Shown piece after piece: positions 7,007-12,215 of a stretch of 34,021 bases of DNA. A program made the position numbers and the translations under genes. The notes beneath the pieces are model-generated. The model made no database searches, was not told where the DNA came from, and worked only from the letters and a program-made list of their open reading frames with translations. Source of the DNA: an uncultured Lentisphaera sp. Lineage in GTDB: Bacteria > Verrucomicrobiota > Lentisphaeria > Victivallales > GWF2-50-93. The stretch is from NCBI GenBank assembly GCA_964638335.1, contig CAZXAC010000001.1, forward strand, positions 1 through 34,021. The letters run 5' to 3'. The number at the start of each line of letters is the position of its first letter. Within the stretch, counting starts at the first letter, position 1.

Positions 7007-7513
7007 ATGGGAAAGAAAATTGCCATACTGATGGGAAGTAAAAGCGATATGCCGCTTCTGCTAAGCGCTTTTGATACATTGAAGGATTTTGGGGTGGAAT
7101 TTGAGGCTAGGATTCTTTCCGCTCATAGGACGCCGGAAGAGGCGGCAAGTTTCGCGAAGGGTGCTGAAAAAAAAGGGATAAAGGTTTTTATATGCGCGGC
7201 GGGGATGGCGGCTCATCTTGCTGGTGTGATAGCATCTTTCACAACGATTCCTGTGATAGGAATTCCCATCGCATCGGAGCCTTTTAATGGCATAGATTCT
7301 CTGCTTTCAATGGTGCAAATGCCTCCAGGGATTCCTGTTGCTGTTGTAAGCGCAGGAAAAGCCGGAGCGCAGAATGCCGCTTTGATGGCAATATCAATTC
7401 TGGCATTGTCAGATCAGGACCTTTCTATTAAACTAAAGAACTACAGGGAAAAACAGAAAAACAAGGTTCTCTCTGCGGATAAAGAGCTTTCAATAGAACT
7501 GGAGAGTAAATGA
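7007..7513 (+). CDS. purE: 5-(carboxyamino)imidazole ribonucleotide mutase
   Basis: KIAILMGSKSDMPLL ... ARILSAHRTPEEA ... FICAAGMAAHLAGVIASFTTIPVIGIPI are canonical PurE motifs. Start taken at ATG 7007, 6 nt after GGAGG (6996-7000). The ORF-track start at 6944 adds a non-homologous leader. Confidence 0.9.
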   Translation: MGKKIAILMGSKSDMPLLLSAFDTLKDFGVEFEARILSAHRTPEEAASFAKGAEKKGIKVFICAAGMAAHLAGVIASFTTIPVIGIPIASEPFNGIDSLLSMVQMPPGIPVAVVSAGKAGAQNAALMAISILALSDQDLSIKLKNYREKQKNKVLSADKELSIELESK

Positions 7514-8526
7514 ACCCAAAATCGCGTATTTTATTTCTTGCGGTTTTAATTATTCTGTTTCAAGTAGTTGAGGGGCAGGATAATTCTTCCGTTGCTGCGG
7601 GTGTTCAGGTGAGCGATACTGTTTCATCCGCCGGACCTGACTTGGATAAGAAATTGAATGATGGACTTTCCGCAGGTAAGGTCTCAGATATAAAGCCAGA
7701 AGAGCCGTCTGTTTCGGACCAGCTATCCAAAAAGCTCTCCGAGATAATCTCAGAAATAGAAAAGTTCTGTCCCCAATTTATAGATAGGAAGCAGGAATTC
7801 TACTCCAATGGGATAAGAGGTTTTCTAGAGGAAGTAAGCCCAGAGCTTGATTATGTTCCCGATGAAAAGGATATCCCTAAAAGCAGTGAAGTGATAAGGC
7901 CTGAATTTCATAGACCTCTTATATTCTCATCGCATAAGATATTGTACATTAGGATTGATGGGTTTTCTGAAGAAAATTTTAAAAAGCTGAAGAGCGAGCT
8001 TTCTGACATATCAAGGCTTGCCAACCCTCCAGTAGGCGTCGCGATTGATCTTCGTTCATCGTCGGGAAACAATGGAATGGTATCTGCAGAATATGCATCT
8101 TTATTTTCTGATGATACTTCTGTTTCCTTTGTTAAAAATGAGGATAGGGGGATAATCAAACTTCCCCTGATGATACTAATAGGATCGAAGACATCCGGAG
8201 ATGCGGAGATATTTGCAGCCCTCATAATGAAATCTGGCAAGGCCTTACTGGTCGGAGAGAAAAGCGTTGGAGCTCCGTTTGCCAGGTTCCCGATAAAATT
8301 GAATAACGGCGGAATCCTGTTGGTGCCGGATATTCCCACAGACCTCGCATGGCTCAGACCTTCTCCTCTTCAGCCATCTATAAACATCAGGGCGTATCCG
8401 CAAGTTGAATATTCAATGATAAGCGGGTCGATTGGATCCGAAGAATCAGATGAATGTATAAGGCGCGTATCGGATTTGCTGGTGTCTCTTGATGCAATAC
8501 AAAAGGATAAAGAAAAGAAGAAATGA
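7510..8526 (+). CDS. secreted S41 (C-terminal processing peptidase)-like protein, possibly non-catalytic
   Basis: Signal peptide MNPKSRILFLAVLIILFQVVEG. S41-like core: ILYIRIDGFSEENFKKL ... GVAIDLRSSSGNNG ... LMILIGSKTSGDAEIFAALIMKSGKALLVGEKSVGAPF. No PDZ-like segment recognised. ATGA overlap with the purE stop. Confidence 0.55.
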   Translation: MNPKSRILFLAVLIILFQVVEGQDNSSVAAGVQVSDTVSSAGPDLDKKLNDGLSAGKVSDIKPEEPSVSDQLSKKLSEIISEIEKFCPQFIDRKQEFYSNGIRGFLEEVSPELDYVPDEKDIPKSSEVIRPEFHRPLIFSSHKILYIRIDGFSEENFKKLKSELSDISRLANPPVGVAIDLRSSSGNNGMVSAEYASLFSDDTSVSFVKNEDRGIIKLPLMILIGSKTSGDAEIFAALIMKSGKALLVGEKSVGAPFARFPIKLNNGGILLVPDIPTDLAWLRPSPLQPSINIRAYPQVEYSMISGSIGSEESDECIRRVSDLLVSLDAIQKDKEKKK

Positions 8527-9140
8527 CCGGCATAAAGTTTTTCTCACTGTCTGCAGATTCCACGCAGGTTTCAAACATTGCTGGGGAATGCGCTGCGTTG
8601 CTCAAAATAGATTCATGCGTAGGATTGATTCCAACTGAGACAGTGTATGGTCTTGTGTGTCGCTGGAACGATCAGAATGCTTACGAAAAAATATGGAAAA
8701 TCAAGAAAAGACCGAAAGATAAGAAGTTTCAGATGCTTGCCCTTTCTGTCGCTGATGCGGAAAAATTTGGTTTTGTTCCGGACGTTAGGGCGAGAAATCT
8801 TCTTGACAGTTTCTCTCCCGGTCCTCTGACTGTAATATCGCGTTCTTCTTTTGGTGGTAGCATAGGTCTTCGTATTCCATCAAACGCCTTTTCCAGAGCT
8901 GTCCTGTCGGGAATCCGATGTCCACTTGCGGCGACGAGCGCAAATATTTCAGGAGCTAAAGATTTTTCTGGGTTTGGCCCCATATTAAGTTCTCTTGCTG
9001 GGACTCCTGATTTCGCCGTCGACGCCGGGCTTGTTGATGGATGCCCTTCAACGGTAGTTGATTTGAGCGGCAGTGAAATAAGAATACTTAGGCATGGCAA
9101 GATAAGCGAGAAAATGATACTAGAGGCTATTTCAAAATGA
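8523..9140 (+). CDS. tsaC: L-threonylcarbamoyladenylate synthase (YrdC/Sua5 family, short form)
   Basis: GLIPTETVYGLVC ... IWKIKKRPKDKKFQMLA ... PGPLTVI ... GLRIPSN ... PLAATSANISG are canonical YrdC-domain motifs. ATGA overlaps at both ends. Confidence 0.85.
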   Translation: MTGIKFFSLSADSTQVSNIAGECAALLKIDSCVGLIPTETVYGLVCRWNDQNAYEKIWKIKKRPKDKKFQMLALSVADAEKFGFVPDVRARNLLDSFSPGPLTVISRSSFGGSIGLRIPSNAFSRAVLSGIRCPLAATSANISGAKDFSGFGPILSSLAGTPDFAVDAGLVDGCPSTVVDLSGSEIRILRHGKISEKMILEAISK

Positions 9141-10930
9141 ATTTTTCTTGTTCTGGAAACAGGAATAAGTTGGAAGAAGCTATAAGTAGGTCGGGCAGTT
9201 CTCTGCTGCGTTTGTCCGGAAGTGAAAGGTGGGCTCTGTTTCAGGATCCAGTTGAGATAATGAGGACTGAGAGCTTGGATGAAGTTGAATACGTGATTGA
9301 TGCGGCTGAGAAAAAGACCAAGGAAGGATTGCATTGTTGTCTCATGGTTCCCTACGATTCTGCTCCGGCTTTTGATTCCGCTCTTAGGTCGTCGAGATCA
9401 TATGAGATTCCGGCTGCATGGGCGGCATTATATAAAAAACCGGAACGATTAATTTCTTTTGACGATTTTCCGGATAGTGAAGATGTTGAGATCCGTGCTA
9501 AAAACGAGATAGCCAAAAGGGAATACTTTGATAGCATATCACGAATCAAATCTTTGATCAGGGATGGAGAGACGTATCAGGTCAACTTTACTTTCAGAAT
9601 CAACGCGGCAGCTCCAAGAGCGGCGGAGAATTGTTTTTTGAACCTTTTTAAGTTTCATAGGCCAATATATGGGGCATTCGTAAATACCGGAGATTTGAAA
9701 ATAATGTCTTTTTCTCCGGAGCTTTTCCTTATGAAAAAATCCAATATTCTCACTTCTTTCCCGATGAAGGGAACCGCCGCGAGAATGCCAGTATACGAGG
9801 AAGACCTGCGTGCGGCGCAAAAGTTATCCGCAGATTCCAAGAACAGGGCGGAAAATCTCATGATAACCGACATGGTGCGAAACGATCTTGGAAGAATTTC
9901 CCGCAATGGAACAGTGAAGACGGAGGCGCTTTTCAAGACGGTGACAACTCCGTCGGTACATCAGATGATAAGCATTGTGAATGGTACAATCAAAGGGAAC
10001 ACAGGGCTGATGGATATTTTTCGGGCGATGTTTCCTCCTGCTTCCATAACGGGAGCTCCAAAAGTCAGGACAATGAGCATAATAAAAGAAATTGAGAAAA
10101 GCCCAAGAGGGATTTATACTGGAACGATAGGACATATTTCTCCGAAGGGAGACTTTATTTTTAATGTGGCAATAAGGACCGCAGTAGTATCTGGAAAGAA
10201 TCTAGTGGCCGGAATCGGAGGAGGAATTGTCGCTGACTCCATGCCGAAATCGGAATGGGATGAGGCCTTGTTGAAATCTTCTTTTTTGAAATGTGGTGGC
10301 AGTGGATTCCGCGTGTTCGAGACAATTCTCTTCAGGAGAAATGAAGGCTGGCTATGGCTGGAGGAACATCTTGACAGGCTGGAGAAGTCTCAAAAATATT
10401 TTCTGCGTCGTTTCGACAGAAAAAAAATAAATTCGACATTGTTGAAAGTTTCTCCTAAGTTTCCTTCTGTTGCCAGAGTGAAAATATCTCTTTCAAGCGA
10501 TGGGACTCCGGACGTAGAGTTCAGGGAAATTGTAAAAAATGGATGGAGAGCAAAAAAAATAAATGCGCTCTTTTCAAAGATCAGGACTTCATCTAAAAAT
10601 ATTTTTTTATATCACAAGACAAGCGAAAGGAAGCTGTATGATGAAGAATTAAAAAAAGCGCAAACTGTTGGTTATGATGAAGTTATATTTGCCAACGAAA
10701 AGGGGGAAATTACTGAAGGCGCGATAACGAACATATTTGCGAAGATAAATGGCGGATGGATCACTCCACCGGTTGGATGCGGGCTTTTGCCTGGAATCTG
10801 GCGCTCAAAAATGATTGCCAAGCTTTCCGCGAAAGAGCAAGTAATTGGCATTGAAGAGTTTATGTCTTGCGAAAAAATAATGATTGGGAATTCTGTTCGA
10901 GATTTTGTCTTCGCCAAAATTATAAAATAG
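9137..10930 (+). CDS. pabB: bifunctional aminodeoxychorismate synthase component I / aminodeoxychorismate lyase (PabB-PabC fusion)
   Basis: Chorismate-binding motifs: GETYQVNFTFR, SFSPELFL, PMKGTA, ENLMITDMVRNDLGRI, FPPASITGAPKVRTMSIIKEIE, RGIYTGTIG, GGGIVADS. These are followed by a ~210-aa class-IV aminotransferase/ADC-lyase-like tail (FETILF..GWLWLEEHLDRL ... YDEVIFANEKGEITEGAITNIF). Confidence 0.82.
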   Translation: MNFSCSGNRNKLEEAISRSGSSLLRLSGSERWALFQDPVEIMRTESLDEVEYVIDAAEKKTKEGLHCCLMVPYDSAPAFDSALRSSRSYEIPAAWAALYKKPERLISFDDFPDSEDVEIRAKNEIAKREYFDSISRIKSLIRDGETYQVNFTFRINAAAPRAAENCFLNLFKFHRPIYGAFVNTGDLKIMSFSPELFLMKKSNILTSFPMKGTAARMPVYEEDLRAAQKLSADSKNRAENLMITDMVRNDLGRISRNGTVKTEALFKTVTTPSVHQMISIVNGTIKGNTGLMDIFRAMFPPASITGAPKVRTMSIIKEIEKSPRGIYTGTIGHISPKGDFIFNVAIRTAVVSGKNLVAGIGGGIVADSMPKSEWDEALLKSSFLKCGGSGFRVFETILFRRNEGWLWLEEHLDRLEKSQKYFLRRFDRKKINSTLLKVSPKFPSVARVKISLSSDGTPDVEFREIVKNGWRAKKINALFSKIRTSSKNIFLYHKTSERKLYDEELKKAQTVGYDEVIFANEKGEITEGAITNIFAKINGGWITPPVGCGLLPGIWRSKMIAKLSAKEQVIGIEEFMSCEKIMIGNSVRDFVFAKIIK

Positions 10931-10961
10931 ATTTTTTTTTGGTTTTTTTTGCATTTTATCT

Positions 10962-10991
10962 TTGACAATTTTTTTTTTTCACGGATATTTA
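10962..10991 (+). promoter_or_regulatory. sigma70-like promoter for the lysine-rich micro-ORF (TTGACA-N17-ATATTT, or N18-TATTTA)
   Basis: TTGACA at 10962-10967. The 17-nt spacer contains an uninterrupted T11 run (10969-10979). The -10-like ATATTT/TATTTA lies at 10985-10991, about 55 nt upstream of ATG 11045. Confidence 0.45.
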
Positions 10992-11044
10992 AACAATTAG
11001 TTGTGTGTGCCAAACAAAGTCCACAATCAACCGGAGGTGGGAAA

Positions 11045-11131
11045 ATGGCTACGAAGAAGAAGAAAGCAGTGAAGAAAGTGGCAAAGAAAGCTCCAGCCAA
11101 GAAAAAGGTTGCGAAGAAGAAGAAGAAGTAA
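11045..11131 (+). CDS. 28-aa lysine-rich basic micro-protein (histone-H1-tail-like composition)
   Basis: MATKKKKAVKKVAKKAPAKKKVAKKKKK*, 16 of 28 residues Lys. GGAGG at 11033-11037 lies 7 nt before the ATG. Own promoter upstream and a strong intrinsic terminator downstream. The ORF-track start at 10949 would include the promoter and is rejected. Confidence 0.55.
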   Translation: MATKKKKAVKKVAKKAPAKKKVAKKKKK

Positions 11132-11155
11132 ATCGCGTTCAAGTAACGTGAATGA

Positions 11156-11187
11156 CGAGCCCCGCGCAAGGCGGGGTTTGTTTTTTT
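11156..11187 (+). terminator. rho-independent terminator of the micro-ORF
   Basis: CCCCGC (11160-11165), loop GCAAG, GCGGGG (11171-11176). The stem is extendable by flanking A-U/G-U pairs. It is followed by TTTGTTTTTTT. Confidence 0.8.
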
Positions 11188-11381
11188 GTTTAGTCATTTT
11201 TTTATCCCTAATGAGATCCGCATTTTGATTTATTGATGATATCGCCATCTGTTCCCTCAAGTGAATTCGTTCGTTTTTTATTTTGCTTTGTGGATTGGGA
11301 AAGAAGCTTGTTGCAGATTTTACTACGGTTCAAGTCTGAGCATACTGTCAGGATTTTTTTAATTTCCGTTTGAAATTTTGT

Positions 11382-11402
11382 TTCGTAAGTTTAGCTTACG
11401 AA
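11382..11402. promoter_or_regulatory. candidate operator: perfect 8-bp inverted repeat TTCGTAAG-N5-CTTACGAA upstream of the DeoR-family gene
   Basis: TTCGTAAG at 11382-11389, spacer TTTAG, CTTACGAA at 11395-11402. A third half-site-like TTTCGTAA lies at 11422-11429. All are within 75 nt of the deoR-family start. Confidence 0.35.
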
Positions 11403-11456
11403 CTAGTTAAAGCATTTTTCGTTTCGTAATAAAACATCTGATGGAGGGTGAGTATC

Positions 11457-12215
11457 ATGCAAAATAGAATTTCCAAGATGAAGGATTTTCTTTTATCTCA
11501 GAAGCAGGCATCGGTTTCTGATTTGAAGAAGCTTCTTTGTGTGAGCGAAGTTACGATACGCAAGATGCTTTCCAATTTGGAAAAGGAGGGTTTTCTTCTA
11601 CGCAGGTATGGTGGCGCGATCATCGCCGAGAATCCAAAGCAGATGCGCAGTATACTTTCAAGGATGGATGTCGCAACGAAAGAAAAGAGGGCGATAGCTA
11701 GGGTATGTTCGAACATGGTGAATGACGGTGAAAATATTCTCTTGGATGCCGGGTCTACGACTTTGGCGATAGCAAGGCAGTTGCGTAACCGCAAGATAAG
11801 GATCATTACCAATAGTCTTCCGATAGCGGAGGAATTGTGTGATTCGACTTCGAATGACAACGTTGAAATACTTGGTGGGTCTCTAAGGAAAAATAGCGCA
11901 TCTGTCATAGGGCCGCAGGCCTGCAGGGCGTTGGAAAAAATTCGAGTGGACAAGTCCTTCATAGGGTGTTCGGGGTTTGATCACAAACTTGGTTTTTCCT
12001 GTGAAAATGCAATAGAGGCTGAGACGAAGAGGATGATGCTCAGGTGTGCGGCAAAGAAGATTATCGTGTGTGATCACAGTAAATTTGATCGTCCGGCGTT
12101 CGTGAATTTCGCCGGTCCGGATGAAATTGATGTGGTGGTGTCAGACCAGAGGCCTGACGCTGACACCTTGAGATTGTTTAGAAAGCATGGAAATGAAATG
12201 ATAGTTGCGAAATAA
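11457..12215 (+). CDS. DeoR-family transcriptional regulator (HTH plus sugar-phosphate-binding DeoR C-terminal domain)
   Basis: The N-terminus ASVSDLKKLLCVSEVTIRKMLSNLEKEGFLLRRYGGA is a DeoR HTH. DAGSTTLAIARQL and KSFIGCSGFD are typical of the DeoR_C sensor domain. ATG 11457 lies 9 nt after GGAGG. The track's GTG at 11448 sits inside the SD. Confidence 0.85.
   Translation: MQNRISKMKDFLLSQKQASVSDLKKLLCVSEVTIRKMLSNLEKEGFLLRRYGGAIIAENPKQMRSILSRMDVATKEKRAIARVCSNMVNDGENILLDAGSTTLAIARQLRNRKIRIITNSLPIAEELCDSTSNDNVEILGGSLRKNSASVIGPQACRALEKIRVDKSFIGCSGFDHKLGFSCENAIEAETKRMMLRCAAKKIIVCDHSKFDRPAFVNFAGPDEIDVVVSDQRPDADTLRLFRKHGNEMIVAK

Follow-up and report, generated by a model that had tools for sequence, protein, structure and literature searches.

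A free-standing micro-gene for a lysine-rich peptide of 28 residues was found at positions 11045-11131 (+ strand) of the window, by which we mean the whole 34,021-nucleotide stretch of Lentisphaera DNA that was analysed. Comparison with orthologous loci showed that it is a genuine gene, with a reading frame under purifying selection, a lysine-specific composition and selection at the codon level.

The micro-ORF has 28 codons and a TAA stop, and it encodes MATKKKKAVKKVAKKAPAKKKVAKKKKK. As claimed in an earlier note on this DNA, lysine makes up 57% of the product (16 of the 28 residues), and the residue make-up is Lys/Ala/Val/Pro. The computed mass is 3.1 kDa, the computed pI 11.2 and the charge about +15.5. 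The gene lies in the 517-bp spacer between a fused pabB-pabC gene (9137-10930) and a gene for a DeoR/AgaR-like regulator (11448-12215). With its expression signals it forms a unit of about 229 bp, in agreement with the ~230 bp proposed before. At the DNA level, the MAG contains one copy of the micro-gene.

All elements of the unit lie on the + strand. Directly 3' of the pabBC stop codon there is a T/A-rich tract (10931-10961) that may act as an UP-like element; comparable T/A-runs precede TTGACA in 8/8 orthologous units. The sigma-70-type promoter (10962-10989, 10 of 12 matches) was resolved by a promoter scan into a -35 TTGACA (10962-10967), a 16-nt spacer consisting mostly of a T-run, and a -10 GATATT (10984-10989). 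This is the same site that had been described as TTGACA-N17-ATATTT, read one base over. The putative 5' UTR (10996-11044) would begin near a conserved ATTAG motif, and it contains the Shine-Dalgarno (SD) sequence GGAGGTG (11033-11039), 7 nt that are perfectly complementary to the anti-SD. Between the GGAGG core (11033-11037) and the ATG at 11045 there are 7 nt, exactly the distance reported previously. Two nucleotides after the stop codon, a small conserved hairpin of 7 bp begins (11133-11151). It is followed by the intrinsic terminator (11154-11192), a GC-rich stem-loop at 11154-11182 with 12 pairs, 7 of them G-C, and then a T-run; the strong terminator of the earlier note was therefore found again. 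That note had placed the elements correctly, apart from the ATG, which it put one base off. High and probably constitutive expression is suggested by several features together: a -35 that matches the consensus, the UP-like tract, the perfectly complementary SD, and Ala as the second codon.

Relatives were gathered by a protein scan with PabBC, keeping one genome per species. The scan placed the window among Lentisphaera-like Lentisphaerota. The four closest loci (L003, L004, L005 and L006; PabBC 52-60% identical) each had a Lys-rich ORF beginning with MATKKK downstream of pabBC, at a distance of 95-140 nt, and three more carriers were recovered via PabBC homologues and their contigs (L109, 60%; L111, 56%; L110, 52%). 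With the window counted in, the unit follows pabBC in 8/8 lineages at a PabBC identity of 52% or more. At the pabBC locus, the micro-gene was missing from L112 (47%) and from every Victivallales or other Lentisphaerota locus with a PabBC identity of 47% or less. The earlier note had proposed a search of this position in relatives, with a broken frame as the refuting outcome; the gene was found after pabBC in seven other lineages, and no broken frame occurred.

The upstream genes purE, an S41 peptidase-like gene, tsaC and pabBC (window 7007-10930; also in L106-L111) form a string that is syntenic with the micro-gene. L109 and L111 keep the full string, and in L110 no tsaC was called in an otherwise conserved string. 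Conservation of this block ends with the micro-gene. The gene downstream of it varies: a deoR gene in the window, a membrane protein gene in L003, L005, L006 and L111, and a convergent gene in L004, L109 and L110. Two of the loci with a membrane-protein gene after the micro-gene also have a tmRNA gene ~1.5 kb downstream of it (L111:5754-6137; L005:7354-7703).

Selection on the reading frame was visible at several levels. The eight orthologous peptides are 26, 26, 27, 28, 28, 30, 30 and 39 aa long, and all the length differences in the DNA are multiples of 3. Compared codon by codon, most pairs had more synonymous than non-synonymous differences; between the window and L004, 8 codons were identical, 13 differed synonymously and 6 non-synonymously. 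Variation between A and G was restricted to the third positions of Lys codons which, together with the in-frame indels, argues for selection on the protein. AAG was enriched over the bulk Lys codon usage of the surrounding long genes in 7/8 lineages (p 1e-6 to 0.012), with fractions of 0.75 versus 0.43 in the window and 0.64 versus 0.10 in L110. Runs of A did not exceed 6 nt in the eight orthologues and reached 7 nt in L092, a look-alike described below. Both the AAG excess and the short A-runs fit a translated frame in which slippery poly(A) is avoided or efficient decoding is selected for. With the frame kept in 8/8 lineages, the indels in frame and the synonymous excess, the earlier claim of a real, self-contained gene was borne out.

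Between the -35 and the terminator, DNA identity with the orthologues was 67-75%, on a par with the 3'-terminal 300 nt of those pabBC coding sequences that were sampled (65-69%); past the terminator it was 46-53%, which is noise level. To set the background, the 0.9 Mb of fetched loci was read in six frames for ORFs of 15-60 aa in which Lys makes up at least 45%; a single unrelated one turned up, and it had no SD. Within the peptide, the MATKKK N-terminus is invariant in the orthologues and a KKAPAKK core near-invariant. The 39 aa of the longest orthologue (L109:4397-4516) come from tandem 12-nt GTGGCAAAGAAA-type repeats encoding VAKK/VVKK, an expansion that indicates an evolutionarily plastic peptide length. 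Two other orthologues (L005:5905-5985 and L111:4161-4253) have an in-frame (K/T)NCGCP insertion mid-peptide, which gives them an extra C-x-C pair.

The untranslated parts of the unit are conserved too. In 8/8 orthologues the promoter consists of TTGACA, a spacer starting with a T7-T11 run, and a -10-like hexamer (GATATT, GACATT, AATATT or GGATAC). About 7 nt after the -10 there is a conserved ATTAG/GTTAG motif, which probably marks the transcript start. The T-tract of the spacer (10968-10983) was considered as a phase-variable element and rejected, since it is identical in four independent assemblies of the strain and its counterpart is present in all the orthologous promoters; it shows no sign of a contingency switch and looks like a fixed promoter feature. 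The GGAGG is invariant across the orthologues, 5-7 nt before the ATG. An inner hairpin sequestering the SD was unsupported, with only 50% of cells paired. In the window, GTTGT (11000-11004) in the 5' UTR is able to pair with the start-codon segment ATGGC (11045-11049). Across the eight sequences, G(C/U)(C/U)GU near the 5' end and AUGGC were paired in 95% of cells, and the changes in this helix were one-sided C/U only, none of them compensatory. Pairing between the 5' end and the start codon is therefore consistent with the alignment rather than proven. The hairpin just after the stop codon recurs in 8/8 orthologues with 5-7 bp, and two of its stem positions vary on both sides between G-C, A-U and G-U (L004, L109, L110). 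The terminator core GCCCCGC...GCGGGG-TTTGTTTTTT is nearly invariant.

Annotation has failed at this locus. The true peptide is missing from the protein collection searched, one pipeline extends it and another picks the wrong frame. The exact peptides of five lineages (26-30 aa) had no entry among 15 billion proteins, and to that extent the prediction that gene callers would miss the gene held. It failed for two other forms, which produce conflicting calls over window positions 11003-11151 (as called in L106-L108). In the NCBI assembly GCA_035399925.1, a 42-aa GTG-extended Lys frame was called (GTG 11003), and in two JGI assemblies of the strain a 48-aa Glu-rich overlapping frame. JGI samples 3300009780 and 3300010355 contain this strain. 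The GTG-extended start was rejected because the extension is unconserved and the ORF starts at the ATG in L004 and L005; it is the ATG (11045), not the GTG (11003), that is conserved as the start codon. The Glu-rich frame, also on the + strand, runs into stops in L004 and L092. Antisense Phe-/Leu-rich frames were rejected as well: they are open merely as a mirror of the Lys codons, they lack signals, and the variation fits the + frame.

The window peptide had no match in Pfam and NCBIfam. When 10 family members were searched against these databases, only sub-threshold echoes were obtained, namely HC2, Burkholderia H1-like, Rv3852, DUF6465 and the K-rich tail of a ValRS model. A profile search with a six-sequence alignment against 1.84 billion representative proteins gave 0 matches at E up to 0.001, as is expected for 28 low-complexity positions, and the family is hidden from profile searches by low-complexity filters. 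No statistically significant homology to characterised DNA-binding proteins was found in Pfam, NCBIfam, the PDB or the protein profile search. No Rfam family reached the gathering level in the whole window, and the tRNA/tmRNA scan found none. A literature search retrieved no description of free-standing polylysine micro-genes.

We give an even chance to the reading in which the peptide is a free, abundant polycation that binds polyanions, chiefly DNA and/or RNA, like the C-terminal tail of histone H1 or a protamine. The unit would be transcribed independently and translated efficiently, yielding an abundant 28-residue peptide with a net charge of ~+15. This peptide would bind polyanions by charge and non-specifically, would be disordered alone and helical once bound, and would serve to neutralise and compact nucleic acid, not to recognise a specific partner. 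With its variable length and repeat number, it is better suited to binding by charge than to lock-and-key recognition. Taken with the use of Lys rather than Arg and with the KKAPAKK core, the variable length points to an H1-tail/protamine-like, non-specific coat of nucleic acid. Matches to HC2, Burkholderia H1-like and Rv3852, all sub-threshold, were the sole database echoes of an H1-like kind, and the composition and the HC2/H1-like matches would fit a nucleic-acid binder. High expression, nucleic-acid binding and a physiological role of the peptide are what we infer.

For the 39-aa orthologue, AlphaFold2 predicted a helix, a Pro kink and a second helix at moderate confidence (mean pLDDT 72.8). 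The C-terminal tails of H1 are helical when their charges are neutralised on a polyanion, and the predicted helix would be plausible only with the charges neutralised in this way. Three points count against a free polycation. The searches turned up no significant homology to characterised DNA-binding proteins, the invariant MATKKK and the near-invariant KKAPAKK could reflect a specific partner such as the ribosome, and the distribution at the pabBC locus is narrow.

Chlamydial Hc1 and Hc2 are Lys/Ala-rich, histone-H1-tail-like proteins that compact DNA in PVC-related bacteria, and they are much longer than the micro-protein. The micro-protein resembles Hc2 (HctB, PF07382), Hc1, AlgP and the Burkholderia H1-like proteins (NF038053) in its Lys/Ala(/Pro/Val) low complexity with AKKAx-type periodicity and in its use of Lys rather than Arg. 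With Hc1 and Hc2 it also shares the PVC-superphylum context. By analogy with the H1-like group, electrostatic binding and compaction of a polyanion would be expected. Unlike that group, the micro-protein has no folded or N-terminal domain, and its 26-39 aa contrast with the lysine-rich pentamer-repeat array of Hc2, which is 165-237 aa long (PMC2848022). No model score supported Hc1/Hc2 membership. The window peptide did not match PF07382 at E up to 1, and 2/10 family members scored 11.7 bits (E 0.11-0.28) against a gathering score of 40 bits; for NF038053 the best score was 14.9 bits (E 0.025, 2/10 members) against an equivalog cut-off of 80 bits. The gene also looks like a constitutive stand-alone unit, unlike the developmentally regulated genes of the Hc1/Hc2 group.

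Similar micro-genes were found outside the clade. A pattern scan of metagenomes retrieved L092, which encodes MATKKKTVKKAACKKTACKKATKKVAKKKK and has its own promoter, SD and terminator. In this contig (L092:11545-12376), the stand-alone 30-aa MATKKK... micro-gene lies between rsfS and ribE, and the micro-protein carries two Cys residues. The RsfS (ribosome silencing factor) encoded there has a C-terminal Lys-rich tail of ~70 aa. For word-based protein searches, extended forms were used as queries, the 42-aa GTG-extended ORF and then an alignment. These revealed a group in metagenome contigs of 61-64% GC, with the form (M)AKKKAVKKVAKKAPAAKKVAKK...CCCK and a length of about 30-45 aa (L099:6073-6195; L100:8088-8207; L103:6070-6189; also P0001, P0003-P0005, P0009, P0011, P0013, P0014 and P0016). 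The CCCK genes have a GTG start after GGAGG and their own conserved leader and terminator, and some end in CSCK or CCCGK. They are represented among gene calls only by N-terminally over-extended ORFs. In 4/4 contigs whose DNA was examined, the gene just upstream of them encodes a Peptidase_M50 (site-2-protease-like), and in three contig contexts a convergent gene for an Mrp/ApbC Fe-S carrier follows (in P0001, as seen from gene calls only). An AT-rich form, MAAKKKAAKKVAKKAPAKKK...AKRA, was also found. The 61-64% GC contigs, too, use Lys (codon AAG) and not Arg for the positive charges, so lysine itself is selected, not just positive charge or an AT bias. At such length and composition, homology and convergence among the look-alike groups look the same in the sequences.

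The main rival to a free polycation is a lineage-specific ribosomal or ribosome-associated micro-protein like bS22, bL37, bTHX or eL41, bound as one copy per ribosome in an rRNA pocket; we consider it rather unlikely. Size, extreme basicity and strong, constitutive-looking expression signals all match such proteins, among them bS22 (33 aa, pI 12.75; PF08213/DUF1713) and bL37 (24 aa, pI 12.02), which like bTHX and eL41 are comparable to the micro-protein in size and pI and suggest, by analogy, a role in neutralising RNA phosphates. Tiny polybasic ribosomal proteins are encoded by free-standing micro-genes that annotation pipelines often miss (10.1101/2023.03.31.535098), and they were themselves long unannotated. 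The invariant N-terminal MATKKK also speaks for a ribosomal role, as does the L092 look-alike directly after rsfS, whose product has a similar K-rich tail. Against it, ribosomal families including PF08213 gave no match in Pfam/NCBIfam at E up to 10, and a PDB sequence search that included ribosome chains found no chain at E up to 10. The micro-protein has no sequence or profile match to the known ones. Its basic residues are Lys, with Arg rare, and aromatic/Gly anchors are lacking. Whereas ribosomal micro-proteins have a fixed length, the orthologues range from 26 to 39 aa, one having gained repeats and two others an insertion that contains Cys. In the Lentisphaera clade, moreover, the gene is unlinked to ribosomal genes.

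The peptide might instead bind a polyanion or surface other than nucleic acid, such as polyphosphate granules or acidic membrane lipids, or be exported as a cationic antimicrobial peptide. We regard this as improbable. Polycation chemistry is generic, and there is a precedent for polyphosphate in the H1-like AlgP, which is reported to organise polyphosphate granules in Pseudomonas (PMC9239181). The CCCK-ended micro-genes, in addition, sit after a gene for an intramembrane Peptidase_M50. The helical hydrophobic moment of 0.27 is within the range of shuffled sequences, however (0.19 +/- 0.10; 19% of shuffles reach 0.27), and membrane binding is disfavoured by this lack of an amphipathic moment above shuffles. 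Ala and Val are the only hydrophobic residues. A cationic amphipathic antimicrobial peptide was rejected on the same moment and on the lack of a signal or leader peptide and of any conserved partner gene; beside the micro-gene, genes for transport, immunity or modification are not conserved.

Still less probable is a function of the RNA, or of its translation as such: a lysine-sensing leader/attenuator, or a regulatory sRNA such as an RsmY-like CsrA sponge. Such a function could draw on the conserved untranslated parts, with the possible 5'-end/start-codon pairing and the compensatory changes in the 3' hairpin, and with 16 Lys codons to read, translation would depend on how much Lys-tRNA is available. 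In a permissive Rfam search of 10880-11460 (581 nt), the only match was RsmY (RF00195) at 11072-11180, at 25.6 bits (E 3e-4) against a gathering score of 57 bits. It was rejected as spurious, being carried by a terminator almost identical to that of RsmY (CCCCGC...GCGGGGUUU) and by purine runs and not by GGA loops, and RsmY gave no match in six orthologous loci at E up to 0.1. An amino-acid-sensing leader/attenuator was rejected as well: no segment is complementary to the 5' arm of the terminator, so there is no antiterminator, and the downstream gene differs (deoR, membrane protein) or is convergent, which leaves nothing constant to regulate. The A/G variation in third codon positions and the in-frame indels are marks of protein-level selection. 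Finally, a fortuitous, functionless ORF in a purine-rich spacer, for which its very short length, low complexity and lack of a matching family model might speak, is effectively refuted by the comparative data: it holds one conserved position in eight lineages whose neighbouring PabBC is only 52-60% identical, its expression signals and frame are kept with codon-level selection visible, and such ORFs are close to absent from the 0.9 Mb of background.

The free-polycation reading can be extended, tentatively and with the balance of probability against it, to the look-alikes. The Lentisphaera gene, the rsfS-linked L092 gene, the CCCK genes next to Peptidase_M50 and similar polylysine micro-genes would then form a widespread, overlooked class of 'protein polyamines' or 'bacterial protamines'. 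Made by ribosomes, these oligolysine peptides would be free and abundant, and they would determine how the charge of the nucleoid and/or the ribosomes is balanced and how far these are compacted. In the Cys variants, cross-links or metal bridges like those of sperm protamines could join the peptides. The eight orthologues and the look-alike micro-genes in three other genomic contexts provide a comparative set. If the peptide is made at the level suggested by its signals, this clade has a major cellular polycation without any record in annotation, which would bear on the ways in which bacteria neutralise and compact their DNA and RNA.
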